Shown: positions 29,829 through 50,746, counted from the first letter of the stretch. The stretch is DNA of 61,934 nt from a virus (IMGVR_UViG_3300022309_000006:1-61934), one strand, 5' to 3'. The notes: generated from the letters alone by a model not told the origin. Program-made: numbers and translations.

Positions 29829-30104
29829 ATGCCCCGGAGCGTAAGGTGTGCGGTCTGTGGGGCGGCCGTCCAGGTCAAGATCAACCTGACGCGCAGCCCC
29901 CGGAGCCGACAAGGCGTCCGGCGGAACCGCCTCGCCCCGATCAAAGGGCACGACCTGTGCCGCCGGTGCTACCGGACGCTGATCGACCGGATCAATGCGG
30001 CCGAACGAGCTGCCGCCGCGCGGCCTCGTGGGCCCGATCAATCACCCGACGATCCGGGATCCCCCGCCCCCGATACTTCTGCTCCAGGAAGCCCAGGAGA
30101 ATGA
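29829..30104 (+). CDS. small Zn-finger hypothetical protein
   Basis: CAVC...LCRRC. Confidence 0.4.
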   Translation: MPRSVRCAVCGAAVQVKINLTRSPRSRQGVRRNRLAPIKGHDLCRRCYRTLIDRINAAERAAAARPRGPDQSPDDPGSPAPDTSAPGSPGE

Positions 30105-30264
30105 CCGCCCACGGCGGCACCGGGTGATACCCGGAGGTTTCCCACCGGAACAACGTCTGGCGCGACACCCCCATGGCGGGCGCGACGACTTCCCGGACCC
30201 CGAGCTGTTCCCGGCGCCGCACGAACTCCACCCGCGAGATCGCCCCGTTCTTCATCTTCCGCAT
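29992..30264 (-). CDS. XRE-type HTH DNA-binding protein
   Basis: RREQLG...APAMGVSRQTLFRWETSG..PVP. Confidence 0.75.
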   Translation of the reverse strand: MRKMKNGAISRVEFVRRREQLGVREVVAPAMGVSRQTLFRWETSGYHPVPPWAVILLGFLEQKYRGRGIPDRRVIDRAHEAARRQLVRPH

Positions 30265-30476
30265 GGATCACCTCCCCGGTGGGCCCGCTGTTGTTCGAGC
30301 TGGCGCCGCATGGCGTTGACGTCCAGCTGCTGCTGCCGTTGCCGAAAATAATCGAACTGCTGGATCGAGCCCCGCGGGCCCGCCGGATTGCCGTCCCGAT
30401 CGTACAACCCGCCCGCCAGTCCCAGCGAGCCCGTCAAGACCGACCCGATCACGACCCCGAGCATCACCTGTCTCAT
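30252..30476 (-). CDS. small exported hypothetical protein
   Basis: N-terminal hydrophobic signal; QQFDYFRQRQQQLD. Confidence 0.65.
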   Translation of the reverse strand: MRQVMLGVVIGSVLTGSLGLAGGLYDRDGNPAGPRGSIQQFDYFRQRQQQLDVNAMRRQLEQQRAHRGGDPCGR

Positions 30477-30769
30477 CTGCGCCCTCCTTTCGTTACGCCC
30501 CGGACCATCCTGACGACGGCCGACGGCACACTGCTCTCGATCTGTTCCACCAGCGGCCCCAGGATGGCCCCGGCTGGCGCCGGACCGTACAGCATGGCAT
30601 ACCCGTCCCCGAGCTGCACATGGTGCCCGGACGCCAGATCCAACCCCGCATCCTCCTGGTCCAGGTCGTCCACCCCCCAGACCTTCACGATCTGGAAGCC
30701 CGCCGTTTCCAATGCCTCCGCCACCACCCGCAAGCGCGTCTCAGGCGCCTTCGGATCCACGATCACCAT
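30473..30769 (-). CDS. hypothetical protein
   Basis: 98 aa, AAGGAGG RBS, ATGA overlap. Confidence 0.6.
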   Translation of the reverse strand: MVIVDPKAPETRLRVVAEALETAGFQIVKVWGVDDLDQEDAGLDLASGHHVQLGDGYAMLYGPAPAGAILGPLVEQIESSVPSAVVRMVRGVTKGGRR

Positions 30770-31151
30770 ACTGCCCTCCTTCCTGATGCCACGGCCCCCA
30801 GGTGCGCCAGCGCAGGAGCTGCGCCCGGGTTTCCTCCGGCGAGTAGCGCCGGGCCGGTTCTGCTTTCGTCACCGCGTAGTACCACCACCGCGGCACGAAC
30901 CGATGTTTGACCTTCAACGTCAGATCCAGCACCGCCTCCTCTTCCAGCGTGATGGAGTCCTGGGTGTCGTCTTCCACGAACGTCCCCACCGGCAGCTCCA
31001 CCCAGGCGTGATCGATCATCCGGCGATGCAGGATGCTCCAGACCTGCCCGTGGACCAGGACGCCCTTGTCCTGCGTCGTGACGAGCTGGGCGGCGACTTC
31101 GTAGCACCGCCCTTCCGGCCGCCGGAGTTTGCGCCGCCTATTCCGTTCCAT
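30741..31151 (-). CDS. hypothetical protein (C...H..HAWVE...D, papain/transglutaminase-like triad possible)
   Basis: GRCYE, LVHG, HAWVE, VLDLT. Confidence 0.6.
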   Translation of the reverse strand: MERNRRRKLRRPEGRCYEVAAQLVTTQDKGVLVHGQVWSILHRRMIDHAWVELPVGTFVEDDTQDSITLEEEAVLDLTLKVKHRFVPRWWYYAVTKAEPARRYSPEETRAQLLRWRTWGPWHQEGGQYGDRGSEGA

Positions 31152-31434
31152 CCCCTACCTCCCGGACGGTAACCTGGTTGGCCCGTTCCAAGATCGCCCG
31201 CACCTTGTGGGGCAGCCGATCGCACCAGTCCAGCACCGTCTCCTCGTCGACCGACCCGGCCTCCGCGACGGCCTGCAGGATTTCCGCACACACAAAGACC
31301 AGCTGCCCGGCCGCGGCCAGCTCGCTCGCGGAGAGCGGATCCGCTTCCTCGCCCGCCAGGATGTCCTGCAAGGCCCCCCGGCAATCCACCAGATCCCGCC
31401 ACGTATTCTCGAACCGACAATAGCTCATGTTCAT
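31138..31434 (-). CDS. MSYCRFENT-motif phage hypothetical protein
   Basis: AGGAGG RBS; MNMSYCRFENT..DL.DC. Confidence 0.7.
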   Translation of the reverse strand: MNMSYCRFENTWRDLVDCRGALQDILAGEEADPLSASELAAAGQLVFVCAEILQAVAEAGSVDEETVLDWCDRLPHKVRAILERANQVTVREVGDGTE

Positions 31435-31448
31435 GCGACACCTCCTGG

Positions 31449-31769
31449 TTATTCCACCACCAACAAGGCCCGGCGGATCAGCGTCCCGCGGTCCACCAGG
31501 AACTCGCCCTCCGAGCGCAGCTCCCGGCTGTAGCACAAGCCCTCGGGCGTCGACATTTCCATCGGGTCCAACCGGACCAGCTCGTTCCACTGCCGCGCGC
31601 CCGGGCTCCAGATTTCCAACACCGCCGACGACTGCGACTTGTAGGCGTTCGACCGGATCTTGATCCGAAACTTCTCGCCCTCCCGTTCCAACAGCTCGGT
31701 GAACGTGACGTCCTGCTGCCCGCGCGCCACCGAGACATCCAACCGCTCCATCGCCACCTTCGTGCTCAT
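31449..31769 (-). CDS. hypothetical protein
   Basis: 106 aa, GGAGG RBS. Confidence 0.7.
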   Translation of the reverse strand: MSTKVAMERLDVSVARGQQDVTFTELLEREGEKFRIKIRSNAYKSQSSAVLEIWSPGARQWNELVRLDPMEMSTPEGLCYSRELRSEGEFLVDRGTLIRRALLVVE

Positions 31770-32050
31770 GCGGCACCTCCCTTCCGGGCCGCCAGGAAGT
31801 CCTGGGTCGCCATCTCGTCCGTGTTGCGAACCGACAAGGTCGCAGGCACCGGGATGACTTCGTAGCGGCGATGCTTCGTCTCCGCGATCACGACCGAGAC
31901 CCCGCGGTACAGGTACACCGTGTGGGTGGGGGAGTACGCGTAAGGCGTCGCCACGAAGCGACGCACATACCCGAGTTCACCCTCGATTTCCGTCAACAGC
32001 CGGGCATGCGCCGCATACCCGATCACCGTCTTGATTGCCTTGGTTTCCAT
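31766..32050 (-). CDS. hypothetical protein
   Basis: ATG 32050 downstream of repeat unit 1. Confidence 0.7.
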   Translation of the reverse strand: METKAIKTVIGYAAHARLLTEIEGELGYVRRFVATPYAYSPTHTVYLYRGVSVVIAETKHRRYEVIPVPATLSVRNTDEMATQDFLAARKGGAA

Positions 32051-32150
32051 CGCGTCCCCCTTGGTTGATTGCCCCGTTTCCATGTTCCCGATGTTACGCC
32101 GTGCAACAGGAAAAAACAAGGGAATTCGGCCCCCTCTGAAGTAGGGGGCC
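32051..32150 (-). promoter_or_regulatory. repeat unit 1: hairpin, sigma70 promoter, operator, leader/RBS
   Basis: CCCC-N-TCAGA-GGGG hairpin; TTGTTT(32119-32114)-17-TAACAT(32096-32091); GTTGCA-CGG-CGTAAC; AATCAACCAAGGGGG. Confidence 0.8.
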
Positions 32151-32157
32151 GGAACGG

Positions 32158-32766
32158 CTAGGCTTCCGAGGGGTTGTCGGGGGCGGGGTCGGCTGGATGG
32201 CCCCACCCGAGCCGCTGGGCGCACACCGGGCCAATCCCCCGGGCCCGGGAGGTTTCGTCCGTGAGGGTTCGGCCGCAGATCCCGCAGGAGCCCATCTCCT
32301 GCCCGAACCGAGCCGACGCCGCCTCGGGGTTGGCGGCGATCAGGTCCAGGATCCGCTGCTTGGTCTCGTGGGCTTTCACCGGATGCCGCTCGTCCGACGC
32401 GAACACCGCCAGGAACGTCCAGCCCGCCCACCGGCCCTCCCGAGGCTTATCGACCGCGTAAAACTTCAAGACCTGATCCTCGGGGTCGACCACGGCGTAC
32501 CGGCCCTCCGGGACCGACGGCCAAAGATCGCCCCGCTCCACCGGCGCTGCGGCCGGTTTCAGCACCTCCACCGGCGCGCTGGCCTGATCCGGTAACCGGA
32601 GCAAGGCGTCGATAAAACTCGAGGCCTGCCGCACCGAGAGCGACAACGCGAGCTGCAGCTCGATCGACTGCGCTAGCGGCGCCGGGACCAGCTTTCTCGT
32701 CAAAAGGGTTTGCAGGAACGCCCGCTGCCGATCGCTCGCGGGCTTGACGTCCGTTGTGGTTGCCAT
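32158..32766 (-). CDS. DUF6011-type Zn-finger protein
   Basis: CGICGRTLTDETSRARGIGPVC; N-terminal PASDRQ. Confidence 0.8.
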   Translation of the reverse strand: MATTTDVKPASDRQRAFLQTLLTRKLVPAPLAQSIELQLALSLSVRQASSFIDALLRLPDQASAPVEVLKPAAAPVERGDLWPSVPEGRYAVVDPEDQVLKFYAVDKPREGRWAGWTFLAVFASDERHPVKAHETKQRILDLIAANPEAASARFGQEMGSCGICGRTLTDETSRARGIGPVCAQRLGWGHPADPAPDNPSEA

Positions 32767-32838
32767 AAGAGACCTCCTTGGTTGATACCCCGGGCTTGGG
32801 ACCGGGGCTGCGGTTTACCGGGCCCGGAGGCCCGTCCC

Positions 32839-33051
32839 TCACCGGCCCGCGCAGCGTTCCATCGCCAGCGTGGCCCAGCGCCGCGTCTTGAACCCGCGGC
32901 CATTGTTCTGTGGAAGATTGAAGCCCGGATGGCCCATGGTGATGAACCACCGGCCCGAGGTTTGGTTTTGCTTGACCGCCTCCTCGCAGCCACAGCAGAG
33001 TTCGACGGCCATCCGATCGGCACAAGTGGAGAGTAAGAACTGGGGGATCAT
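32839..33051 (-). CDS. hypothetical protein
   Basis: 70 aa after repeat unit 2; GRWFITMGHPGFN. Confidence 0.65.
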   Translation of the reverse strand: MIPQFLLSTCADRMAVELCCGCEEAVKQNQTSGRWFITMGHPGFNLPQNNGRGFKTRRWATLAMERCAGR

Positions 33052-33148
33052 GAAGCACCTCCTGGTTGATTGTCCCGTTTCCATGGTGCTGATGTTACGC
33101 CACGTAACAGCAGAAGGCAACAGAAAACCGCCCCCTCTGATGGGGGGC
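33052..33148 (-). promoter_or_regulatory. repeat unit 2
   Basis: TTGCCT(33120-33115)-17-TAACAT(33097-33092); perfect TGTTACG-TGG-CGTAACA; hairpin followed by TTTT. Confidence 0.8.
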
Positions 33149-33157
33149 CTGCCCGCC

Positions 33158-33469
33158 CTACCGGGCGGCCTGTTGCAGCACCGCGAGCCCCCGCTTGGCT
33201 TCGAAGACCGAGTCGGTCGCCAATTCCAGGTGGAGCCGCGCTACCTGCCGCTTCCCGGAGGCCCAGCAGACCGGCCCGATGTTGACGATCCATTCCTCGC
33301 CCATCGACCGAGCCTCCACCGCGGCCGCCAGGTGCAACAAGGCCACCCGACACTCCCGGTGATGCATGCTGCCCGGGAACGACACCGTCACGCGCGGCTG
33401 CGGGTTGCCGTATTCGCTCTCGCCCATCACAACGTCCATCTTGACCAGCTTTTCGGTTTCGACTTTCAT
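33158..33469 (-). CDS. hypothetical protein (paralog of 34610-34978)
   Basis: EYGNPQP, LAAAVE...EEW, LELA...EA.RG.AVL. Confidence 0.7.
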   Translation of the reverse strand: MKVETEKLVKMDVVMGESEYGNPQPRVTVSFPGSMHHRECRVALLHLAAAVEARSMGEEWIVNIGPVCWASGKRQVARLHLELATDSVFEAKRGLAVLQQAAR

Positions 33470-33578
33470 GGCTGCCTCCTTGGTTGATCGCGCCGTGTTC
33501 ATGATGCTGTTGTAACGTAACGTAACAACGGAAGCAAGGGGAAAAAGCAAAAACCACCCCCCTCTGATGGGGGGGGTC
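33470..33578 (-). promoter_or_regulatory. repeat unit 3 (variant operator, GTTAC x3)
   Basis: TTGCTT-17-TACAAC; hairpin followed by T-tracts; ATCAACCAAGGAGG leader. Confidence 0.72.
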
Positions 33579-33608
33579 TACTTTTCCGGGGATGGGGGCG
33601 GTCCGGCG

Positions 33609-34178
33609 TTATTGCGGGATCGAGACGTAGAGCGGCTGGCCGTTCCGGCCATACTGCACCTTGCCGTCGACCCGCAAGAGGTGCCGCTCCTGGCCGCGGA
33701 CCAGGATGGTCTCCGGGAAACCCTGCTGCTCCGGGTCTTCCCGCAGGACCGCCACGGGCCGGTGGGGCAGGTCGAGCAAGGCCGTCGGGACACAGCCCTC
33801 GCGGACCTCGTCGTAACTCCAGAGCGACGGCTGGACCGACTCGGGCGCCCGGACCCCCACGAGGCTGCCGTCCTGGATTTCGATCAACACCGGCACCGGC
33901 GCCGGTTCGGCGGTCGCTTGCTGCTGGACGTCCGGCGGGAGCTTCTGGAACGACCCGGCCTGGTCCACCTTCCCGGCGCGGTACACCACCGAGTCCATCG
34001 CCACCCGGAGCCGCGCGAACGCCTCCGCCCGGACGCCGCCCCCTTCGTAGGTTTCGTATTCCTCGAGGCCCTCGAGGAACAGCGCCAACTGCTGCGCCAA
34101 GCCCTCGCAGGAGCCGCCCTGCAGGACCCACCCGATCAACGCTTCCTGGAGTTGTTCTTCTTTCGACAAGTCCGCCAT
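33609..34178 (-). CDS. hypothetical protein
   Basis: AACCAGGAGG RBS; 189 aa. Confidence 0.65.
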   Translation of the reverse strand: MADLSKEEQLQEALIGWVLQGGSCEGLAQQLALFLEGLEEYETYEGGGVRAEAFARLRVAMDSVVYRAGKVDQAGSFQKLPPDVQQQATAEPAPVPVLIEIQDGSLVGVRAPESVQPSLWSYDEVREGCVPTALLDLPHRPVAVLREDPEQQGFPETILVRGQERHLLRVDGKVQYGRNGQPLYVSIPQ

Positions 34179-34191
34179 GATGCCCTCCTGG

Positions 34192-34509
34192 TTAGTCCGC
34201 CAACATTTCAAAGTGGAACGAGTCCCGCGGCTGGCTGATGTCGATCACGCCCTGCAGGACGATCGAGTGGAGCAGCCCCGGACGCATGCCGAGCTTCCGG
34301 GCCAGCGCCGCGATTTCCTGGTCGACGTTGCCCGGCTGGCCCGCCGGGACGTTGAGCTGCTCCTCCGCCGCCCAGACCGACGCCAACCCCTGGATCGCCA
34401 GGTGCCGGGCGCCCGAGTTGAACCATTCCCGCCGATCGATCACCTCCGTCGCGCCCTGGATCCGCTTCGCCTTCGCCGCCGCCTGCTTGGTTGCCGCCAC
34501 CTTGTTCAT
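34192..34509 (-). CDS. hypothetical protein
   Basis: ATG 34509 after repeat unit 4. Confidence 0.7.
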   Translation of the reverse strand: MNKVAATKQAAAKAKRIQGATEVIDRREWFNSGARHLAIQGLASVWAAEEQLNVPAGQPGNVDQEIAALARKLGMRPGLLHSIVLQGVIDISQPRDSFHFEMLAD

Positions 34510-34609
34510 CGCGTCCCCCTTGGTGAATAGTCCCGTTTCCATGCTGCTGATGTTACGCCGCGTAACGAGAGAAGGCAAGGGAAATCGACCCCCTCTGATG
34601 TAGGGGGGG
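34510..34609 (-). promoter_or_regulatory. repeat unit 4
   Basis: TTGCCT(34578-34573)-17-TAACAT(34555-34550); perfect GTTACG-CGG-CGTAAC. Confidence 0.8.
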
Positions 34610-34978
34610 TTACTTCCCCGTGAACACCAACCGGACCAGCGCCTCGTTGTTTTTCTTGAGGTTGGCGACGGCCCGTCGGAGCACCGCGGCGCCGCGTTCC
34701 GCTTCCTCCATCGTGCCGTCGGCCAGCTCGAGCTTCAGGATCGCCCGGTGCGGGTTCCCTTTCCCCATCAGCGAGAACCGGCCGGGATGAATCCCCCAGG
34801 CCTCCTCCAGCGAGAACATGGACACCTCGGCGGCCAACCGGAACATGAAGGCGTCCTGGAGTCGGCCCGTGAGCCGTTCATCCAGCTCCACGATCACGAC
34901 CGGCACCGGGGTGCCGTATTCCGTCTGCGCGCCTTCCCGAATTTCCACCTTGAGCGTTGGTGTGTGAAAGCCGACCAT
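34610..34978 (-). CDS. hypothetical protein (paralog of 33158-33469)
   Basis: EYGTPVP, LAAEVS...EAW, LELA...EA.RG.AVL. Confidence 0.7.
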   Translation of the reverse strand: MVGFHTPTLKVEIREGAQTEYGTPVPVVIVELDERLTGRLQDAFMFRLAAEVSMFSLEEAWGIHPGRFSLMGKGNPHRAILKLELADGTMEEAERGAAVLRRAVANLKKNNEALVRLVFTGK

Positions 34979-35077
34979 CTGAGCACCTCCTTGATGGATT
35001 CCCCCGTGCAACATGAGGCCATGTTACGCCGCGCAACATCGGAACACAAGGGAATTCGACCCCCTCTGAAGGGGGGC
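34979..35077 (-). promoter_or_regulatory. repeat unit 5
   Basis: TTGTGT(35049-35044)-17-TAACAT(35026-35021); GTTGCG-CGG-CGTAAC; AAGGAGGTG RBS. Confidence 0.8.
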
Positions 35078-35149
35078 TCGATCCCGTTGACTTCCTGGCG
35101 CCGATGGCTTTAGGGTTTACCCCCGAGCCAATGGCGTAAGGGAGGCCCC

Positions 35150-35371
35150 ATGAAGACAACGCAATGGGTACCGCCGCTCACCGACCGGGAGCGCGACGTG
35201 GTGCTGCTGGTGTGGCAAGGGTTGAGCAGCCGGGAGATCAGCGCGCAGCTCGCCATTAGCCTCAAGACCGTGGAGGCCCACCGGGCGAACATCATGAAGA
35301 AATGGCGCGTCCGGGGCGTCGTCGAGATGATGAAGGCCGGGATGGCGCTCGGGATTTTGAGGAAGCAGTAA
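35150..35371 (+). CDS. stand-alone LuxR/GerE-family HTH regulator
   Basis: LTDRERDVV.LV.QG.S.REI..QL.IS.KTVE.HRANIMKK. Confidence 0.92.
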   Translation: MKTTQWVPPLTDRERDVVLLVWQGLSSREISAQLAISLKTVEAHRANIMKKWRVRGVVEMMKAGMALGILRKQ

Positions 35372-35378
35372 GGCAGGC

Positions 35379-35415
35379 AAAAAAATGAGCGGTCGGCACC
35401 GCTACCGACCGCTCA
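35379..35415 (-). terminator. rho-independent terminator
   Basis: 11-bp perfect stem TGAGCGGTCGG/CCGACCGCTCA, 8-nt loop, T7 on the minus strand. Confidence 0.8.
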
Positions 35416-35432
35416 ACGGGTATCAACCAAGT
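35379..35432 (-). ncRNA. predicted ~54-nt antisense small RNA
   Basis: Minus-strand promoter upstream and intrinsic terminator downstream; 5' seed CUUGGUUGAUACCC. Confidence 0.55.
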
Positions 35433-35438
35433 GGGTGG

Positions 35439-35467
35439 ATTCTGCCACAGCAGAGCCGCCCTGTCAA
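35439..35467 (-). promoter_or_regulatory. sigma70 promoter for the predicted sRNA
   Basis: TTGACA(35467-35462)-17-CAGAAT(35444-35439) with TG extension. Confidence 0.6.
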
Positions 35468-35479
35468 CAGGAGGACACG

Positions 35480-36607
35480 ATGCACCACGCTGACCACGAC
35501 CAGCAACCAGGACCACCCCCAGGGAGCCCCGCGATGATTTCAGCCATCAACGAACAGATCGCCGACTGGAAGCGCAACGGCGCGCACATTCTCGCCCCCA
35601 TGACCCTCCAGACCGTCCCGGCGATGCACCGGCCGGTCCTGGCGATCGTGCAGATCGACCCGGACCCCAAGAACAAGGAAGTGTACCCGCAGAAAGGGGG
35701 CGGCCTGTCGCTGTCGGCGATCGGCTGGAAAAAGCTCGCCGACGCCATGCGGATCCAATGGATCCCGGAAGAATGCCGCCAGACCGACGACGGGCGCGAT
35801 CCGAACCGTTGCGCCTACCGGATGGTGGGCCGGGTGAAGTCCCTCGACGGGACCTGGCGGCGCCTGATTGGCGACAAAGAAGTCCAGATGGACGTGGTCC
35901 GGGAGGAGCTACAGGACAGCTACCGGGAGAAAGCCAGGGCCTACCAGGATGACCCGAAGGACGGGCCCGCGTTCCGCCGGGCGTTCCCGACGCCTGAGGC
36001 CATCGAGGGCTGGATCCAGGAGAAGGTCCGGCAAGATGCCCTGCAGATCCGGAAGCACCGGCTGTCCCGCGCCCAAACCGGCGCGCTGGCCCGGGCGGTG
36101 AAATCGATCGGCGTCCGGGAAACCTACAGCGCCGCCGAACTCGCTAAACCGTTCGTGTTCCCGATGCTGGTGCCGGAGTTTGACCCGAACCACCCGGGAG
36201 ACCGGGCGTTCCTGCGGGCCCAAGCGGTCGGCGCCATCGAGCAGTACTACCCGGAGCGGCCCGCCCCCCCGGCGCCCGAGCCCCCGGCCCCCCGGCCGAG
36301 CCTGCCGGGCCCGGAGGAATTGGTCGCCGCGTACCCGGAGCACCGCGCCCTCCACTACCAGCCCGCCCCGGCCTCGCCCCCGCTGACGCCGCTCGAGAAC
36401 CTCCGGGCGGATTTCTATGCGGCCGACGCGATCGGCCAGCGCGAAGTGCTGGAGCGCCTGATCCGCCAAAAGGGCTACGCGGGCAAAGTGCAGGGACAGA
36501 TCGAAGAGTGGAGCCTGCAGCAACGCGCCGGGTTTTTCGACCGGCTCATCGCCATGCCGGACGTGGCCCCGGCAGCCCGGCAGACCGACGAGTTACCGTT
36601 TGACTAA
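35480..36607 (+). CDS. hypothetical protein, possible recombinase/annealing protein
   Basis: AGGAGG RBS; upstream of sbcD/sbcC; acidic DELPFD tail. Confidence 0.6.
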   Translation: MHHADHDQQPGPPPGSPAMISAINEQIADWKRNGAHILAPMTLQTVPAMHRPVLAIVQIDPDPKNKEVYPQKGGGLSLSAIGWKKLADAMRIQWIPEECRQTDDGRDPNRCAYRMVGRVKSLDGTWRRLIGDKEVQMDVVREELQDSYREKARAYQDDPKDGPAFRRAFPTPEAIEGWIQEKVRQDALQIRKHRLSRAQTGALARAVKSIGVRETYSAAELAKPFVFPMLVPEFDPNHPGDRAFLRAQAVGAIEQYYPERPAPPAPEPPAPRPSLPGPEELVAAYPEHRALHYQPAPASPPLTPLENLRADFYAADAIGQREVLERLIRQKGYAGKVQGQIEEWSLQQRAGFFDRLIAMPDVAPAARQTDELPFD

Positions 36608-36657
36608 TGGCCCGCGCCGGGCGCCAATAGCCTAGCGCCACAACCAAGGAGGGCCGC

Positions 36658-37830
36658 ATGATCCGACTGCTGCACTTAGCCGATCTTCACCCGAACGCGA
36701 GCGCCACGCTGGCGGGCAAACTGGCGATTGACCCGGAGACCAGCCAGAACCAAGCGTTGACCGATCTCGACCTGAGCCTGCAGGCCTGCCTGCGGTCCGC
36801 CACCAACCCCGCGCGGCCGTGCCACCTGGCCGTGCTCGCAGGCGACGTGTTCGACAGCCACAAGCCGCACCCGAACGAAATCCGGGTGATCCGCCGGTTC
36901 CTCGAGCCGCTGGCCCTCGAGATGCCGGTGGTGGTGATCCCGGGCAACCACGACATGAGCCAGAACCCGCGGGACGCCACGGCCCTCGAGGCCATCAAGG
37001 GCCTGCCGGGCCTGCATGTCGTGGAACGGCCCGACGTGCTGACGCTGGCGGTCGACGGGCAAGCCGTGCAGATCGCCTGCCTCCCGTACCCGCAGAAGGG
37101 ACGGCTGCTGACCCAGGACGAGACGCTCGACCAGAGCCCCGAGGCCGTCACGGCCCGGATCAACCACGGCCTGGCCGCCATCCTGCGGCATTTTGCGGCC
37201 GAGCGGTCGCCCCACACGTTCACCCTGCTGGTGGCCCACGGGTCCGTCCGGAACGCCTCGGTCGGGGACCAGCCCCGGAGCCTCGAGCACGACATTCTCA
37301 TTCCGACCGACGACTTCGGCGCGTTCGACTACGTGGCGCTCGGCCACATCCACCGGGCCCAAGCGGTCGCGGCGAACGCCCACTACTGCGGGAGCCTGAC
37401 GCGCCAGAGCTTCGGCGAAGAGACCGAAACGAAAGGCTGGCACCTGGTGGAGCTGGGGGGCGCCGAGCTCAAGATCCGGCAAGTTCTCAACCCGCACACC
37501 CGGACCTACTGCACCATCACGCCCGCGATGCTGCAGGACCATGACTACCCGGAGGGCCTCCAGCCCGGCATTTGCTGGCGCTTCAAAGCCAGCCTGACGG
37601 ACCAGGAGGCCCAGGCCCTGCAGCCGACGCTCGCCCGGCTCGCGGCCTCCACGCCCTGGTTTCAACAGACCATCGAACACGTCCGGGAGGCCCGCGCGCG
37701 CGACGCCGCGATGACCACCGTGCTGACGACCGAAGCCGCCCTCCTGCGGGCCCTCGAGGGCAAGGTCACGCCGGAGCAGCTCCCGGCGCTCCTGGAGCTG
37801 CACCGGGCCCTCGACCAACAGAGCGATTGA
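36658..37830 (+). CDS. sbcD: SbcD/Mre11-like metallophosphoesterase nuclease
   Basis: HLADLH, AGDVFD, IPGNHD, VAHG, DYVALGHIH. Confidence 0.93.
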   Translation: MIRLLHLADLHPNASATLAGKLAIDPETSQNQALTDLDLSLQACLRSATNPARPCHLAVLAGDVFDSHKPHPNEIRVIRRFLEPLALEMPVVVIPGNHDMSQNPRDATALEAIKGLPGLHVVERPDVLTLAVDGQAVQIACLPYPQKGRLLTQDETLDQSPEAVTARINHGLAAILRHFAAERSPHTFTLLVAHGSVRNASVGDQPRSLEHDILIPTDDFGAFDYVALGHIHRAQAVAANAHYCGSLTRQSFGEETETKGWHLVELGGAELKIRQVLNPHTRTYCTITPAMLQDHDYPEGLQPGICWRFKASLTDQEAQALQPTLARLAASTPWFQQTIEHVREARARDAAMTTVLTTEAALLRALEGKVTPEQLPALLELHRALDQQSD

Positions 37831-37881
37831 CACGCGCCTCCCCGGCCCACCATGGTGCCGGGATCACCAAGGAGACACCGC

Positions 37882-40185
37882 ATGCTGCTCGAAGAAATCC
37901 ACCTCCGCCATTTCGGAAGTTACGACGACGCGACGATTGACCTCCGCGGCCTCACGGCGGCCGTGGTGCTGGGGCCGAACGGCGCCGGGAAATCCACCGC
38001 GTTCATCGATGCCGTGTTGTGGGCCCTGTACGGGCAAGCCCGGAGCAGCACCGACCACATGCTGAAGACCGGCGAGACCGACATGACGGTCGTGGTGACG
38101 TTCCGGCTGAACCAGCAACGCTACCGGGTGATCCGCAAGCGGAGCCTCCGGACCAAGGCGGGCAAGTCCGACCTGGACCTGCAGGTGGACCGCGACGGCA
38201 CCTGGGCGCCGTTCGGCGCCGGACGGGTCGCCGAGACTCAAGCGCAGATCGTGACGTTGCTGCATTGCGACCACAGCCTACTGACCGCCACGTCCTTCTT
38301 TCTGCAGGGGCAAGCCGACCGCTTCAGCCGCGCCACCCCGGCGGAGCGCAAGACGATCCTGGCGGGCATCCTGCGGCTCGACCACTACGCGGACCTGAAG
38401 CAGCGCGCCGGGCAGGAGCTGACCCGGCTGGACAGCCGCCGGGCCGCGAAGTGGGAACAGCTCCAGGCGCTCACCGATTTGGACGAGACCCTGGCGGCCC
38501 ATCACCGCCAGGCGCGCGAACTGACCGACGGGATCCAGTATGCCGAGCAGGAGCACCACACGGCCGACCAAGCCCATGCCGCCCTCCGGGACCAGATCAC
38601 GGCGCTGAAGGGGCAACTCGCCACCTTGCCGGACCTGCAGGCCACCCTCGAGACCGACCGCGCCACCGTCCAGCCCACCGACACCAAACTGCAGGCCCTG
38701 CTGCAGCGGCACGAACGCTGGAGCAAGATCACGCGGAACGCGCCGGTGATCCGGGAGAAGCTCGAGGCCCATCGCGCCACCTCCAGCGTGATCGCGGCCC
38801 TCGAGCGGACCCTGCAGGACCGGGAACCGGACCTCACGATGGTCCGGGACCAAGTCGCCCACGCCCAGCGCGGCGTGGCGGACCTGCAGGCCCTCGAAGC
38901 CCTGAGCCGCGACCTCCGGCACCAGATCGAGACCGCCGCGACGGCCTACCAGCGCGAGACCGCGGACCTGACGGCCGACCAGACGCGCGACACCACCCAG
39001 GCGGCCCTCTTGACCCAGGTGCCATGCGGCCAGGACCTGCAGGGGCGCTGCCAATTCACCACGCTGGCGGTCGCGGCCCACGCCCGGATCCTGCCCCGCG
39101 AGCAACGCCTGGCCGGGCGCCCGCAAGATTGGCCCGCCATCGTGGCGCTGGTGGCCCCGGACCAGGCCGTCGAACAGGTCAAACTCGAAGCCCAGATCCA
39201 GGAGGCCCGCCGGGCTAACTGGACCGGCATCGTGGCGGAACGCCAGGCTGTCCTGCGGGACCTTGAACAGCACCACCAGCGCGACCGCCAGACCCTCGCG
39301 CAGAAGAAAGGCCTGCTCCCCGAGCTGGAACGCTTCACCGTCCTGCTGCCCGAGCTGGAGCTGGCGGAACGGGAGCTGCCCGGCATCGCGGCCGAGATCA
39401 ACAGCCTGACGGCCTCCATTACCCAGCTCCGCCAGCGCATCACCGACCAGACCCTGGCGATCGCCCGGCTCCAACAGATCCCCACCACCATCACGACCCT
39501 CGAGCAACGCGCCCAGGACGCCCGCGCGCGGATCACGACGATCCAGCGCCACCAGACCACCCTGAGCGAACAGCTCGGCGCCACCCGGGCCGCCATCCAG
39601 CACACCGAGGAGGCCTTAGCCTCGGCCGACAGCCTCCGGGCCGACCTCGCGGCCCTCGAACTCAGCTGCGACCAGTACCGGACCCTGCAGGAGGCCTACG
39701 GGCTTATCCCCACGTTCATGATGGAAAACGCCCTGCCGATCGTGGAACAAGAGACCAACGCCCTGCTGGCCCGGATCAGCCGCACCGGCATGCAGGTCCG
39801 GTTTGACACGCAGAAGGCCCTCAAGAGCCGGGACGGCCTGGCCGAAACCCTCGAGATTGTGGTGCGGGACCAGGTAGGCGAACGCCCGCTCGAGAACTAC
39901 AGCGGCGGCGAACGGTTCCGGCTGGACCTGGCCCAGCGGATCGGCCTGTCGAAATTACTGGCCCGCCGGGCCGGAGCCCGGATCGAGACCCTGGCGATCG
40001 ACGAAGGCCTGGGCAGCCTGGACGAAGACGGCCTCCTGCAGCTGCAGGAATGCCTGGGCGCCCTGGGCGACGATTTCAAACTCGTGCTGGTCATCACCCA
40101 CGTCGACCAAATGAAGGCCACGTTCCCCAGCCAGATCATGATCACCAAAGACCACCAGGGCAGCCACGCGGAGGTACTGACATGA
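37882..40185 (+). CDS. sbcC: SbcC/Rad50-like SMC ATPase
   Basis: Walker A GPNGAGKS, Q-loop LQG, coiled coil, YSGGE, IDEGLGSLD, VITH. Confidence 0.93.
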   Translation: MLLEEIHLRHFGSYDDATIDLRGLTAAVVLGPNGAGKSTAFIDAVLWALYGQARSSTDHMLKTGETDMTVVVTFRLNQQRYRVIRKRSLRTKAGKSDLDLQVDRDGTWAPFGAGRVAETQAQIVTLLHCDHSLLTATSFFLQGQADRFSRATPAERKTILAGILRLDHYADLKQRAGQELTRLDSRRAAKWEQLQALTDLDETLAAHHRQARELTDGIQYAEQEHHTADQAHAALRDQITALKGQLATLPDLQATLETDRATVQPTDTKLQALLQRHERWSKITRNAPVIREKLEAHRATSSVIAALERTLQDREPDLTMVRDQVAHAQRGVADLQALEALSRDLRHQIETAATAYQRETADLTADQTRDTTQAALLTQVPCGQDLQGRCQFTTLAVAAHARILPREQRLAGRPQDWPAIVALVAPDQAVEQVKLEAQIQEARRANWTGIVAERQAVLRDLEQHHQRDRQTLAQKKGLLPELERFTVLLPELELAERELPGIAAEINSLTASITQLRQRITDQTLAIARLQQIPTTITTLEQRAQDARARITTIQRHQTTLSEQLGATRAAIQHTEEALASADSLRADLAALELSCDQYRTLQEAYGLIPTFMMENALPIVEQETNALLARISRTGMQVRFDTQKALKSRDGLAETLEIVVRDQVGERPLENYSGGERFRLDLAQRIGLSKLLARRAGARIETLAIDEGLGSLDEDGLLQLQECLGALGDDFKLVLVITHVDQMKATFPSQIMITKDHQGSHAEVLT

Positions 40186-44322: not shown

Positions 44323-44759
44323 TGCGGACGAACTACGGCGATCTGCCGCTGACGCTCGACCCGCGGACCGGCCGCGCCACCCTGGCGCCCGCGCGCCCCG
44401 TGGTGCCGGTGGCGCCGGGCCCTGTGCCCACGTTATCCCCAGGCGCCCGGTACCGTTCGAAGACCGAAGCCCGGTACGCCGGGCACCTCGAGGCCTGCCG
44501 GATGGCCGGGCAGATCCGGGAGGCCCGGTACGAAGCCCTCCGCTTCACCCTCGGGCCCCGCACGACCCTGACGCCCGATTTCTGCGTGGAGCGCCCGGAC
44601 CGGCAGCTCGAGCTGCACGAAGTCAAAGGTTTCGCCCGCGAGGACGCCTGGGTGAAGCTCAAGATCGCGGCCGTCCAGTGGCCCTGGTTCCGCTGGGTGC
44701 TGGTGACGTGGGACCGGCGCGCCGGGACCTGGCAGCTCCGGGAGGTGCCCCGGGGATGA
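44322..44759 (+). CDS. PD-(D/E)XK endonuclease (DUF1064-like)
   Basis: SKTEARY, TPDF, HEVKG, VKLK.AA. Confidence 0.82.
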   Translation: MRTNYGDLPLTLDPRTGRATLAPARPVVPVAPGPVPTLSPGARYRSKTEARYAGHLEACRMAGQIREARYEALRFTLGPRTTLTPDFCVERPDRQLELHEVKGFAREDAWVKLKIAAVQWPWFRWVLVTWDRRAGTWQLREVPRG

Positions 44760-45223
44760 GCCGCCACCGCATCAACCCGAAGGCCGGATGGGTGAGTCCC
44801 GCGGTCTTGCCGAAAGGCCCGAACGGCCGGACGCAATGCCGGTATTGCCAGGCCGAAGTCCCCACCGGGCGCCGGTCGTTTTGCAGCGACGTCTGCGTCC
44901 ACGAATGGAAGCTCCGGTCCGACCCCACCTACGTCCGCCGCCAGATTCACCGGCGGGACCGCGGCGTCTGCAGCGCGTGCGGCCTCGACACCGACCGCTT
45001 CAAGGAGGCGATCGCCCGGCTGCCTTACGGCCAACGCCTCCCGGCCCTGCTGGCCCGGGGCTTTAAGCAGCACGGCCACCTGTGGGAAGCCGATCACATC
45101 CAGCCGGTCGCCGACGGGGGCGGCGAATGCGGCCTCGAGAATTACCGAACCCTGTGCCTCCCGTGCCACAAACTCGCCACACGTCAGTGGCGACACACCC
45201 GTGCCTCAACCAAGGAGACCTAA
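44756..45223 (+). CDS. HNH endonuclease
   Basis: RDRGVC..C, WEADHI.PV..GGG...L.N.RTLC..CH. Confidence 0.9.
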   Translation: MSRHRINPKAGWVSPAVLPKGPNGRTQCRYCQAEVPTGRRSFCSDVCVHEWKLRSDPTYVRRQIHRRDRGVCSACGLDTDRFKEAIARLPYGQRLPALLARGFKQHGHLWEADHIQPVADGGGECGLENYRTLCLPCHKLATRQWRHTRASTKET

Positions 45224-45224
45224 C

Positions 45225-46166
45225 ATGACCGACACCGCCACCGTGCTCGACCCCGCAGACCTGCAGGACGACGCCCAGCGCGACACCCTGTGGAAGCTCA
45301 CCAAGGACCTGAAGAAAGCCGCCAAAACCCTGTCGGCCGACGAGGCCCGCTACCTGGTGGACCGCTACTACCAGCTGCAGAACGACCGGATCCGCGCCGA
45401 CGCGCAAGTCCGGGCCGCCGGAGACGCCGGAGAACCGAACGCCCTGCTGGGCTGGATGTCCGAGACCTCCTGGGCGATGGAGTGCGCGATCAAAAAAGCC
45501 CTGGACATTTATTCTGACCAACACGCGCCCGGCCGCTGGGCCAAGGCGCAGTACGGGATCGGGCCGGTGCTGTGCGCCGGGCTGCTGGCCCACATCGACA
45601 TCACCAAGGCCCCGACGGTGGGGAAAATCTGGCGATTTGCCGGGCTGGATCCAACCGTGACGTGGGAGAAGAAAACCAAGCGCCCGTGGAACGCCCGGCT
45701 CAAGACCCTGTGCTGGAAAATCGGCGATTCCTTCGTGAAATTCCACAACCGCGACGCCTGCGTCTACGGCAAGCTGTACGCGGAACGCAAACGCTACGAG
45801 ATCGACCGGAACCTGCGGGGGGAGCATGCCGAGACCGCCCGGCTGACCCTCGAGGCCAAGAAGTTCGACAAGAGCACCCCGACGTACCACGCCTACCAGG
45901 ACGGCAAGCTGCCCGACGGCCGGATCGAACTCCGGGCCCGCCGGTGGGCCGTCAAGCTGTTTTTAAGCGGCCTGCACGAAGCGATGTATTTTGACCGTTA
46001 CGGCACGCTGCCCCCCAAACCGTATGCGCTCGAGCACCTGGGGCACGCGCACTACATCGCGCCGCCGCACCTGGAGGAAATCCCCGGCTGGGCCGAGGCC
46101 CGCCGGAAGGCCGCGCCACTGCCCAACTCAACCGAACCGAGAGAGCCATCCGCATTCGATGAGTGA
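45225..46166 (+). CDS. tasA: TIGR-associated Tas protein, nuclease-less TasA type (IS110/Nop-like RNA-binding domain)
   Basis: Coiled coil YYQLQNDRIR, GIGPVLCAGLLA.ID...GKIWRFAGL.P, WNARLK.L, Y...Y..RK, RARRWAVKLFL; no N-terminal DEDD RuvC; directly followed by a 36-nt dual-repeat array. Confidence 0.8.
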   Translation: MTDTATVLDPADLQDDAQRDTLWKLTKDLKKAAKTLSADEARYLVDRYYQLQNDRIRADAQVRAAGDAGEPNALLGWMSETSWAMECAIKKALDIYSDQHAPGRWAKAQYGIGPVLCAGLLAHIDITKAPTVGKIWRFAGLDPTVTWEKKTKRPWNARLKTLCWKIGDSFVKFHNRDACVYGKLYAERKRYEIDRNLRGEHAETARLTLEAKKFDKSTPTYHAYQDGKLPDGRIELRARRWAVKLFLSGLHEAMYFDRYGTLPPKPYALEHLGHAHYIAPPHLEEIPGWAEARRKAAPLPNSTEPREPSAFDE

Positions 46167-48042
46167 CCCAGCGATCTCGATAGGACGGGGAGCAGGAGGG
46201 ACCCGAAGTAACGGATCGGACACGGACTGCGAGGGAGCCGACAGCGACGAGTGCCCCGTCGAACAGAAGCGACCCGTGATGAAGGATGGCGCGGATCAAT
46301 TGAGGGACCCGAGGGAACAGATCGGACGTGGTATTAGGAGGGAGCCTCCTGCGACGAGTGCCCCGTCGAGAGAGAGCGAACCGTTCAGGAAGATTGACCG
46401 AGCATGACGAGTGACCCGTAGGAAGCGATCGGACAGAAGAAGGAAGGGACCCAAGAGATTAGATCGGACGTGGCAGACGAGGGAGCCGACATCAAGGCGC
46501 GCACCGTAATACTTGAGCGAGCCAGGGGCACGTGAGGGGACCGATGCAAAAGAGCGAGCTGTCACGGGCGAGTGGACCGAAAGGATGGAGCGAGCCGCCG
46601 CAATAGAGTGGTCCGAACCACCAGAGTGCCCCGGGTCACTCTGGCAATACTAACACGGTTTATTAAAGCCGCAATGGAGTGACCCGAACCGCCAGAGTGC
46701 CCCGTACTCCTTGAGGGAGCCGTTACCGATGAGAGGGCCGAGTTTCGAGAGCGAGCCGCTGTCGGACGAGTGACCCGCCAGACCCGAGGAGTCCGAGAGA
46801 GACGAGGGAACCACGGGGTACGATAGAGCGCGTATCGAGAGTGACCCGCGCTAGCGGAGCAGCCCGTAGCACCTGAGGAAACCGGGCCTTCGGAGGGGAC
46901 CGATTCGCGTGAGTGAGCCGTCAGGTCCGATGCGATCGCAAGACAAGAGCGAACCGTCTTGAATGAGGGGGCCGCGACCACGGAGTGAGCCGCTGTCCGT
47001 GAGGGGACCGCGTGTTATGAGCGAACCGTTCAGGAAGATTGACCGAGCATCACGAGTGACCCAAGCTAGGAGAGTGCCCCGCGAGCAGCGAGGGAGCCGC
47101 CGTACAAGAGGGACGTGCAAGAAAAGAGCGAGCCGAGACGACGGAGCGCACCGTCGCCCGCGAGTGAACCGGGTTGAGTGAGTATGCCGGGGCTTGGAAG
47201 TGTAGCCACTTTACGGGAGCATCCCGTGACTCCAGAGCGAACCGTGACATGAAGCGCACCGCTTGGGACGAGTGACCCGCTCACGACGAGAGGCCCGGCC
47301 ATTGTGAGGGAACCGTCAGTAACGAGACCCCGAGCGTCCCGGTATTTGGGAGTGAGCCGAGATAACTGAGTCACCCTGTGAGAGAGCAGCGAGCCGATTC
47401 TGAGAAGCGCACCGCTGGAAGTGAGCGACCCGGCCAACCAGATCGGACGTGTGTCCAGAGGGAGTCGAGAGAAAAGAGCGCACCGTAGTAAAAGAACGAC
47501 CCGGACTAACAGGGAGCACCGGTACACATGAGGGACCCGAGAAAGAGCAGCGCACCGAGCTTGTAGAGGGAGCCGATGAGAGAGATCCCCGCGATTCTGA
47601 AGAGCGACCCATCGTAACCGTGAGCACCGAGAAACATGAGGGAGTCAGGACCGTTGAGCGCCCCGTCAAGACCGAACGAACCGGCCTAACAGGGAGCACC
47701 GCTAAACATGAGTGAGTTGATTTGCCTGAGCGCACCGGAGGAAAGGAACGACCCATGACGAGAGAGCGCCCCGTATCGACGAGGGAGTCGAGCGTTGAGA
47801 GCGCCCCGAAAAGTCCGAACGACCCCGGGGACAGAAGCGGACCGCGCTTGATGAGGGAGCCATGCACTGCGAGCACCCCGTACAGATTGAGCGAGCCGAA
47901 GACTAGGAGCGGACCGAATTTGATGAGGGAGCCATGCACTGCGAGCACCCCGTAGAGGTGGAGCGAGCCGTCGACCCTGAGTGGACCGCAAAGAGTAAGC
48001 GAGCCGAAAGAGTTGACCAACCCGAATGCTGAGAGCGCCCTA
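46143..48042 (+). ncRNA. TIGR-like tandem interspaced guide RNA array (~52 units of 35-36 nt)
   Basis: ~104 motifs at ~18-nt spacing, alternating GAGNGANCCR with GAGNG(C/G)NCCG or GATNGGACG, separated by 8-9 variable nt; no credible ORF. Confidence 0.85.
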
Positions 48043-48058
48043 ACGACAGGAGGACCCC

Positions 48059-49315: not shown

Positions 49316-50746
49316 ATGCCAACCAAGCGCCCCGCCACGAAGTCCCGTGCCCCGATCGCCCGGCCCGAGCCCGGCGAACAGATCGCTCCCTTCGACATTG
49401 CCCAGCTGCAGCTGGACCCGAAAAACGCCCGCGCCCACGGCGATCGAGACATCAAGGCCATCATGGCGTCGATCCGCCAGTGGGGCTGGACCAACCCGAT
49501 CATCGTGCGGGCCGGAACCACCCAGGTGGTGTGCGGCCACGGCCGCGTCCAAGCTGCCATCCGGCTGGGCCTCAAGACGGTCCCGGGGATCAGCCGGGTG
49601 TTTGCCACCGACGCCGACGCCAAGGCCTACGCGATCGCCGACAACCGGACGGCCGAGCTGTCGGCCTGGGACCTGCCGAACCTCAAGGATTCCTTGACGG
49701 AACTCGAGGGCCAGGGCTACGACATCGCGTTGACCGGCTGGACGGTCGACGAACTCCAGAAGATGCTCGACTTTGACAGCGAGCCCGAGCACGACCCCGA
49801 CACCCTGCCGGTCGTGGGCGGCCCGCCGGTCGCCAAGCCCGGCGAGCTGTGGTGTCTCGGGGACCACCGGATCCTCTGCGGCGATGCCCAGGACCCCGCG
49901 GTCTGGTTCCGGCTGATGGGCGGCCGGAAAGCCCACGCGATCTTTACCGACCCGCCCTATGGCGTGGCCTATGAAGCCCAAAGCGGCAAATACGACGCGA
50001 TCAAGAACGATAGTCTCCGGCACGGCGCCCTCGCGGAATTCCTCTGGAGGACCTTTCGCAACCTCGTGCAGCACGCCGAGGACACCGCCGCGTTCTACAT
50101 TTGGCACGCCTCGAGCACCCGGCAGGACTTCAGCCATGCGCTGATAAACGCCGGGTTGACCGAACAGCAATACCTGATCTGGGTGAAGCCCGCGCTCGTG
50201 CTGGGCCACGACGACTACCAATGGGCCCATGAGCCCTGTTTCTACGCCGCCAAGTCCGGCCACAAACCGGCCTGGCACGGAGACCGGAGCCAACCGACCA
50301 CCTGGCGGTTCAGCCCCGTGAGCCCCGAGGGCATCATGGCGAGCGTCGGCCGCGGCCTGACGCTGCTGCACGGCCCCGAGACCCTCCACCTGACGACCGA
50401 CAGCCCCAAGACCAAGAAAACCCGGACCGTCCGGGTCCCCGAGGACGGCCGCCCCGTCCTGATCGACATCGGCAACCAGCCACACCACGACTGCTGGGAA
50501 GTCTCCCGGGACCACAACGCCGAGCACCCCACCCAAAAGCCCGTCGCCCTCGCGGTCCGGGCGTTGCGGAACAGCACCCAGTACGGCGAGCTGGTGCTCG
50601 ACGCCTTCCTGGGCAGCGGCACCACCCTGATGGGCGCCGAGATCCTGGGCCGGACCTGCTACGCCACCGAAATGGAGCCGAAGTACGTGGACCTGGCGGT
50701 GCGCCGGTGGGAGCTGTTCACCAAGAAGAAAGCCGAACGCGCATGA
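49316..50746 (+). CDS. ParB-like N-terminal domain fused to N4/N6 DNA methyltransferase
   Basis: P.NAR.H, SI..WGW.NPI, GHGR, IADNR; TDPPYG, HPTQKP, LDAFLGSGTT. Confidence 0.92.
   Translation: MPTKRPATKSRAPIARPEPGEQIAPFDIAQLQLDPKNARAHGDRDIKAIMASIRQWGWTNPIIVRAGTTQVVCGHGRVQAAIRLGLKTVPGISRVFATDADAKAYAIADNRTAELSAWDLPNLKDSLTELEGQGYDIALTGWTVDELQKMLDFDSEPEHDPDTLPVVGGPPVAKPGELWCLGDHRILCGDAQDPAVWFRLMGGRKAHAIFTDPPYGVAYEAQSGKYDAIKNDSLRHGALAEFLWRTFRNLVQHAEDTAAFYIWHASSTRQDFSHALINAGLTEQQYLIWVKPALVLGHDDYQWAHEPCFYAAKSGHKPAWHGDRSQPTTWRFSPVSPEGIMASVGRGLTLLHGPETLHLTTDSPKTKKTRTVRVPEDGRPVLIDIGNQPHHDCWEVSRDHNAEHPTQKPVALAVRALRNSTQYGELVLDAFLGSGTTLMGAEILGRTCYATEMEPKYVDLAVRRWELFTKKKAERA

Follow-up and report, generated by a model that had tools for sequence, protein, structure and literature searches.

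Does the short spacer behind a regulator gene of an uncultivated phage hold a gene for a small RNA, and which messages would such an RNA control? The earlier note had proposed that a minus-strand RNA at positions 35379-35467 silences several early genes, and possibly the TIGR-Tas effector, as an RNA-based developmental switch in a phage with no evident integrase/CI module. The analysis was performed in the window, that is, the whole virus record of 61,934 bases, which derives from sediment metagenome runs, is about 90% complete and has a G+C content of 66%. For bases 30000-39999, the runs listed as containing the phage include no RNA run. According to a GC3-based gene map, plus-strand structural genes extend up to ~29.8 kb, minus-strand genes run from 29,992 to 35,014, and the plus strand is used again from 35,150 on. 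The locus lies within a 108-nt spacer between two plus-strand genes (35150-35371 and 35480-36607), and its features are as follows.

35150-35371, plus strand: GerE/LuxR-type HTH gene (gerE), 73 aa (PF00196, E 1.4e-16)
35379-35432, minus strand: predicted small RNA of 54 nt, its start placed 7 nt after the -10 element and its 3' end in the U-tract
35386-35415, minus strand: terminator stem-loop of 13 bp including one G-U pair, with U7 at 35385-35379 (scan and fold)
35416-35432, minus strand: predicted single-stranded, G/U-rich 5' tail of 17 nt (the seed), reading ACUUGGUUGAUACCCGU
35439-35447, minus strand: extended -10 element, TGgCAGAAT (TG-n-CAGAAT)
35462-35467, minus strand: -35 hexamer TTGACA, part of a 10/12 promoter match
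35480-36607, plus strand: gene X, 375 aa, its ATG placed at 35480 behind AGGAGG (the database start is 35534)

Gene X is followed by SbcD-like (Metallophos) and SbcC-like (AAA_23/SMC_N) genes, and among the loci examined here it always stands beside SbcCD-like genes. No Pfam family and no PDB sequence match was found for its product, which falls in a PHROG family of unknown function; a comparison with the Atlas gave a weak lead only, to Rad52-like / Rad52-type annealing proteins (score 0.88). A conserved phage protein, it has 46 homologues, including one in a Nitrospira MAG, and the closest of them (P0002, on a 56-kb contig) is 65% identical.

In order to locate promoters, bases 1-60,000 were scanned for consensus matches. 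The putative small-RNA promoter, with a 17-nt spacer and an extended -10 element, was the sole match of 10/12 in this span, and the other promoter-like site scored 9/12 at position 3711. Its -35 hexamer is 1 nt away from the AGGAGG Shine-Dalgarno (SD) sequence of gene X, and A35432, the predicted start, is the 7th base past the -10 element. The hairpin, located 23 nt downstream of the promoter, surpasses every other terminator-like site that the scans detected. A stricter terminator scan (perfect stem of at least 8 bp, at least 6 T in 8 positions) of the window and of the loci of seven relatives was passed by four sites: this unit, its analogues in the relatives L005 and L010, and one site inside gene 45225-46166. 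The predicted 54-nt RNA folds at -26.9 kcal/mol (z -5.1, none of 200 shuffles being as good), and its tail is free except for a weak 3-bp hairpin. The minus-strand TTGACA-17-(TG)CAGAAT, the unpaired 5' segment, the U7 and the length of about 54 nt were all found where the earlier note had placed them, and the hairpin is present as well, its stem having 13 bp with one G-U pair rather than the 11 bp proposed.

Read in the plus-strand direction, A7 comes before the hairpin and no U comes after it, and its G-U pair becomes a C-A mismatch; because of the absent U-tract and the mismatch, it would be a terminator on the minus strand only. A plus-strand reading, with an open reading frame at 35385-35537, was considered and rejected, since this frame has no SD and the hairpin has the above defects on that strand. 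In the strain contigs (X3-X6), one additional A/T at 35378 is the only difference listed inside 35379-35467; 35 further substitutions are not displayed, and the X6 contig (35099-35540) has two substitutions of which one is unplaced, so an unchanged seed is unproven. A search of Rfam 15 over 30-48 kb (E <= 1) gave nothing at 35379-35467, and at the gathering threshold the whole window contained only the twister-P5 ribozyme described below. Judged by consensus matching, terminator scanning and folding, a discrete promoter-terminator unit for a minus-strand RNA of ~54 nt is present; a promoter of its own and an intrinsic terminator with a U-tail of at least 6 are the marks of a stand-alone sRNA. 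As far as these sequence features can tell, it is likely that a small RNA is transcribed from this locus.

If such an RNA is made, its tail could pair with several ribosome-site regions. The complementary sites, together with the elements surrounding them, are listed here.

32048-35078, minus strand: span of five early cassettes of ~100 nt each (repeat comparison)
32048-32148, 33049-33149, 33467-33575, 34507-34607 and 34978-35078, minus strand: cassettes 1 to 5 (repeats)
32060-32069, minus strand: 10-nt site in the cassette 1 leader (gene 31766-32050), ddG -15.9; ACGGG also pairs across an internal loop
32777-32790, minus strand: 14/14 site in the DUF6011 leader (gene 32158-32766; PF19474), complementary to nt 2-15
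32790-32843, minus strand: twister-P5 ribozyme, 60.8 bits (gathering score 37.6), E 3e-10
33063-33070, minus strand: 8-nt site plus ACGGG in the cassette 2 leader (gene 32839-33051), ddG -13.5
33479-33488, minus strand: 10-nt site in the cassette 3 leader (gene 33158-33469), ddG -11.4
34519-34536, minus strand: imperfect site in the cassette 4 leader (gene 34192-34509), ddG -13.9
36641-36648, plus strand: 8-nt site before the SbcD-like gene, judged indistinguishable from chance
45206-45214, plus strand: 9-nt site before gene 45225-46166 ('tasA'), judged indistinguishable from chance

The six sites named by the earlier note (14, 10, 10, 8, 9 and 8 nt) all exist at their positions on the sense strand, where they end at -10 to -12 from the start codon and abut the SD sequence. 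The perfect 14-nt block corresponds to nt 2-15 of the predicted RNA (35431-35418). Its site before the DUF6011 gene begins at the last base of the ribozyme, which lies directly upstream of the leader of this gene, and spans the gap from there to the SD sequence. The three sites of at least 10 nt are all in ribosome-site regions and share one register, and sites of at least 8 nt number 18 in the whole window, seven of them in ribosome-site regions, which make up an estimated ~4% of strand space, and the other 11 within coding regions. An 8-nt seed match is also located at +4 to +11 of a ParB_N-N6/N4 DNA methylase fusion gene (49316-50746, plus strand).

Each of the five cassettes contains the hairpin CCCCC-TCAGA-GGGGG, whose tail is T-rich, as well as a promoter of the form TTGCnn-17-TAACAT, a palindrome and a leader. 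The leader shared by the cassettes is ~36 nt long and ends in ..GGAAACGGGnCAATCAACCAAGGAGG, and seed runs of 8-10 nt match three of the five leaders next to the SD sequence. The palindrome (consensus TGTTACGCGGCGTAACA) lies over the -10 element in all five cassettes and is probably an operator, for which the product of the nearby GerE-type gene (35150-35371) is a candidate repressor. Five palindromes over -10 elements and a GerE/LuxR gene at the divergent junction make repression at the protein level likely too. The premise of a phage lacking a CI module is therefore doubtful, and the notion that an RNA switch stands in for a repressor is weakened by the putative operators and the GerE-type gene.

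The number of contiguous matches was evaluated with 5000 shuffles of the seed against 81 ribosome-site regions spanning -35 to +15. Complementary runs of at least 8 nt were present in seven of the 81 regions (reached by 9 of the 5000 shuffles), runs of at least 9 nt in four (3 of 5000) and runs of at least 10 nt in three (0 of 5000); the longest run, of 14 nt, was likewise reached by 0 of the 5000. Random genomic 17-mers had a mean of 0.93 regions with at least 8 nt. Additionally, TCAACCAAG was found five times versus 0.26 expected, and the 17-mer seed with up to three mismatches twice versus 0.03 expected. By the measure of contiguous runs, the complementarity between the seed and the leader stretches that abut the SD sequences of the DUF6011 gene and the repeated cassettes thus exceeds chance. 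The matches in several leaders are not independent events, because the leaders are paralogous copies of one cassette, and such complementarity would also be expected if the plus strand merely holds a decayed copy of a leader.

The pairing energies, scored as a cofold ddG that charges for the opening of both partners, gave a different picture. The five best regions belong to four cassette genes and the DUF6011 gene (-15.9 to -11.4), and a ddG of -12 or below was found in 4 of the 81 ribosome-site regions versus 0 of 325 coding-region controls. Shuffled seeds reached at least five regions at ddG <= -11 in 17 of 120 cases and at least seven regions at <= -10 in 28 of 120 (mean 4.3 regions at <= -10), and the best ddG (-15.9) was equalled by 5 of 120. 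Energies alone do not discriminate in this G+C-rich genome, and target prediction on the phage leaders by energy, which the earlier note had suggested as a check, performed no better than shuffled seeds. Since the energy ranking failed in this comparison, our case is not based on energies, and tasA and sbcD were not retained as supported targets.

Two observations led to this rejection: the energies do not discriminate, and most of the match belongs to the generic ribosome-site motif ACCAAGG. The tasA site has a ddG of -10.7, within the range of shuffled seeds, and the sbcD site is outside the 14 best regions. Six of the 8-9 matched nucleotides at these two sites are part of ACCA(A)GG(A/G)G, a motif that occurs in 13 of the 81 ribosome-site regions, all of them at 31-51 kb, and is absent from the structural genes; it may be the mark of an expression class or a translational enhancer. 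The proposal that tasA and sbcD are specific targets is thus unsupported, and they are probably not. As for the identity of 'tasA', gene 45225-46166 matches the PHROG family 'transposase' (E 7.5e-48), and Pfam yielded only a sub-threshold Transposase_20 and no Nop match. In TIGR-Tas systems, as the cited part of the source describes them, a Tas protein with a Nop domain adjoins a TIGR array (PMC12045711).

Several further features were observed around this gene. An HNH endonuclease gene (44756-45223, plus strand) lies directly upstream, and downstream there is a stretch of 1.9 kb without called genes (46167-48058), in which a 72-nt tandem repeat with 2.2 copies is found at 47832-48005. Inside the gene, a strong terminator-like hairpin with an 11-bp stem and a T-rich tail is located at 45675-45699 on the minus strand; no promoter-like site was seen within 110 nt upstream of it.

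A possible origin of the seed is suggested by a longer likeness. Over 30 nt, the small-RNA locus shows, on its plus strand, inverted homology to the DUF6011 ribosome-site region. At 35418-35431, which belong to the predicted transcript, 14/14 positions are identical, and on the far side of its start 9/16 are; the -10 element CAGAAT has its counterpart in the DUF6011 start-codon region, read as the reverse complement. If the seven mismatches were randomly placed, the chance of all of them missing the 14-nt block would be 0.0056. This pattern is what selection on a transcribed seed would leave, an alternative being a recent conversion tract with its boundary at the predicted start. The DUF6011 gene, the best target, may be dispensable: an X4 contig joins 32151 to 32834 and so lacks 32152-32833, a segment with the gene and its 14-nt site as well as 44 nt of the 54-nt ribozyme. 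Because this contig deletes both, the gene and the ribozyme behave as an accessory module. The small-RNA locus is carried, with one more A/T in the U-tract, by another X4 contig, which need not come from the same genome.

No close relatives suitable for covariation analysis were found in the phage database, the viral contigs or the genome contigs. The comparison was extended to seven distinct gene X loci (L009 being a repeat of L003). Five of the seven have a short spacer before gene X without such a unit. The other two, L005 and L010, have a minus-strand unit at the identical position, its -35 element against the SD sequence of gene X, with an unrelated sequence and, as in the window, no match in Rfam.

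L005, 2041-2132, minus strand: analogous small-RNA unit, TTGACA-16-TGaTACGAT (10/12), with a terminator of 13-14 bp
L010, 863-950, minus strand: analogous small-RNA unit, its hairpin closely similar to that of L005

Within its locus, the L005 unit has the top-scoring promoter as well as the top-scoring terminator, and the L010 promoter, missed by the scan, was scored 7/12 by eye. Two base pairs differ between the L005 and L010 hairpins, and both are kept through G-U pairs on the minus strand. In all three units, including that of the window, the U-tract is on the minus-strand side, and the G-U pairs of all three hairpins fit the minus strand only.

The tails of the L005 and L010 units are G/U-rich as well, and they pair with the ribosome site of gene X, ~45 nt away, and not with distant leaders. 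In both, the predicted pairing comprises one helix over the SD sequence and the spacer and another over codons 2-5, with the AUG left in an internal loop between them. For L005, pairing with the SD sequence and codons 2-4 has a ddG of -24.0, which none of 300 shuffles reached (lowest -23.0), and among 40 L005 coding controls the 1st percentile stood at -13.1. The L010 tail gave a ddG of -9.7 with gene X, reached by 11 of 300 shuffles. The two-helix topology is common to L005 and L010 and the letters differ on both sides of the helices, which is the nearest approach to covariation in our data. The window RNA pairs poorly with the ribosome site of its own gene X (-2.6 for the start at 35480 and -6.6 for that at 35534); with gene X the best target in L005 and L010, the function is perhaps not conserved. 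A search for trans sites of the L005 seed found, apart from the unit itself and gene X, only a 10-nt match at 9020-9029, in a promoter-like stretch, and is uninformative because the locus holds only 9.2 kb. Read with these qualifications, the L005 and L010 analogues lend weight to a mechanism directed against ribosome sites.

Among the competing explanations, the one that survives best, in our opinion still an unlikely one, is that the RNA acts in cis only, as an OOP-like antisense RNA. It would pair with the gerE-gene X intercistronic mRNA and, through RNase III cleavage or transcriptional interference, determine how much regulator there is relative to gene X/sbcCD, and the likeness between seed and leaders would follow, as a side effect, from the shared ancestry of 5' regions. 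The situation of the unit between co-oriented plus-strand genes, in a 108-nt spacer where no plus-strand promoter was seen, agrees with this explanation, although the RNA, which runs convergently to gerE and ends 8 nt past its stop codon, has no overlap with the coding region. L005 and L010 keep the position beside gene X and not the seed sequence, and gene X itself is the best target in both, as a cis function would have it; the pairing there, however, is with a separate, non-overlapping ribosome site ~45 nt off, which is of the trans type. A precedent exists in OOP, described in the cited part of a review as a 77-nt antisense RNA acting via RNase III (PMC12197685). An argument against a cis function alone is that it leaves unexplained both the perfect 14-nt block, which stops at the predicted start and gives way to decayed sequence past that point, and the fixed SD-abutting register of all sites of at least 10 nt.

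It is less probable still that the locus makes no functional RNA, the hairpin being a structural or mRNA-stabilising element after gerE, the hexamers a product of chance, and the seed a decayed duplicate of a leader. The promoter scans rest on consensus matches, the energy statistics are unremarkable and the unit is absent in five of the seven relatives, all of which is in line with this explanation. The best promoter and the best terminator occur together, in the right order and on one strand, in the window and again in L005, which speaks against this explanation; the strand preference of the U-tract and of the G-U pairs in three of three units, and the non-random distribution of the mismatches, also speak against it.

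The weakest alternative, which we regard as improbable, is that the RNA pairs with the leaders to another end (activation or stabilisation, nuclease protection, tuning of ribozyme processing, or host mRNAs), or that the plus-strand copy is a decoy for a leader-binding factor: the last base of the twister-P5 ribozyme is indeed the first of the 14-nt site, the leader element resembles known translational enhancers in being C/A-rich, and ACCA(A)GG(A/G)G, being common to 13 of 81 ribosome-site regions, may be read by a factor, but the predicted structures contain no inhibitory leader structure that pairing would open, and a duplex within the ribosome footprint is usually repressive.

The reading that we prefer is a small-RNA gene that represses early-gene leaders and the DUF6011 gene. 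A host RNA polymerase of the sigma70 type would start at about A35432 and stop at the 13-bp hairpin and U7, giving an RNA of ~54 nt with a free G/U-rich 5' tail, a terminator hairpin and a U-tail, an architecture typical of Hfq-type base-pairing RNAs. The tail, possibly an inverted and selectively preserved copy of an early-gene ribosome-site region, would pair with the C/A-rich leader element (ACGGG..AUCAACCAAG) directly abutting the SD sequence. Its predicted targets are the DUF6011 gene behind the ribozyme, with 14 bp, and, in three to four of the five leftward early cassettes, the first gene. Pairing at -24 to -10 is within the 30S footprint and usually represses; a duplex placed there would be expected to block initiation, and thereby to repress translation. 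Any read-through mRNA from gerE into gene X would be perfectly complementary to the whole small RNA and might be cleaved upon pairing or act as a sponge, so the RNA may work in cis as well as in trans.

The sequences themselves display the anatomy of the unit, the complementarity with its register, the non-random pattern of identity and, in the relatives, a conserved position together with ribosome-site pairing. From these data we infer that the RNA is transcribed, that it begins at 35432 and pairs in vivo, and in which direction and when it acts. As a composite, the preferred reading is the best explanation available, and we consider its chances about even; if the RNA is transcribed, repression of these early leaders becomes somewhat more probable than the opposite outcome. 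A wider proposal, which we put forward only tentatively and hold to be rather doubtful, is a position-conserved family of anti-ribosome-site RNAs, whose seed arises from an inverted copy of an initiation region and can be re-aimed. Its members would silence gene X in L005 and L010 and serve here as a master off-switch for early proteins, aimed at the leader common to five operator-controlled early transcription units and at a ribozyme-led gene, and sponged or occluded by rightward transcription.

None of the titles and abstracts listed by full-text searches of the literature describes an RNA with which a phage represses several early genes of its own by way of a leader common to them, and the phage RNA regulators treated in the cited part of a 2025 review mostly act on one phage gene in cis or on host genes (PMC12197685). 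If real, the RNA predicted here would be a self-standing, phage-encoded RNA governing a set of its own early genes via a shared leader. Together with its relatives and the cassettes, it would form a compact system of ~54 nt plus leaders of ~36 nt. A possible lesson is the birth of a seed from duplicated ribosome-site regions and its subsequent re-aiming, and a possible use is that of a small orthogonal translational switch.

Known phage RNAs resemble the predicted one in different respects. The c4 RNA is cut from the same transcript as its target, acts on one antirepressor operon, and has its sites a' and b' at the ribosome site of the downstream gene. In the cited part of the review, c4 (P1/P7) and sar (P22) are phage RNAs that block phage ribosome sites, c4 carrying its complementary sequences in exposed RNA parts (PMC12197685). 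The likeness to c4 of P1/P7 (immI) is that of a small phage RNA pairing around the ribosome-binding site of a phage mRNA and blocking its translation (PMC12197685, as cited in part). In contrast to the c4 type, the window RNA has its own promoter on the opposite strand, matches several transcription units and has no Rfam match; the L005 and L010 units are like c4 in pairing with the ribosome site of the downstream gene. The sar RNA overlaps its single target, ant, whereas the sites of the window RNA are several and lie 2-3.4 kb away. The same source gives sar as 68/69 nt long, with its own promoter, repressing a phage gene at its translation start, and OOP of lambdoid phages as a short antisense RNA that has a promoter and a terminator of its own and lies between a regulator gene and the gene after it in the rightward operon (PMC12197685, in the part cited). 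OOP overlaps the 3' end of cII and involves RNase III, whereas the window RNA ends at 35379, 8 nt short of gerE (stop at 35371) and so outside the 3' coding end of the upstream regulator, and its seed matches elsewhere.

The seed of GcvB is G/U-rich, as is that of the window RNA. According to the cited part of the source, GcvB uses one seed region to repress many mRNAs, whose C/A-rich elements, located at the ribosome site or upstream of it, become masked (PMC7534054). The two are alike in setting one seed against many leaders over a C/A-rich stretch, but GcvB is a longer, Hfq-dependent RNA of enterobacterial hosts that acts on amino-acid transport genes, and it has no sequence or Rfam relation to the window RNA. 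In phage T4, such control of early genes is exerted by proteins, the repressor RegA and the SD-cutting nuclease RegB, which shut off many early ribosome-site regions. They are comparable in that a phage factor reads a shared feature of early ribosome sites, and they differ in being proteins, not RNA. The activation of RegB is the subject of PMC9409239. By analogy, the predicted RNA appears closest to c4 and sar in function, to OOP in geometry, and to GcvB in the logic of one seed and many leaders; judged from its sequence, it would, unlike sar and OOP, have no overlap with its proposed targets and, unlike c4, sar and OOP, address several transcription units.
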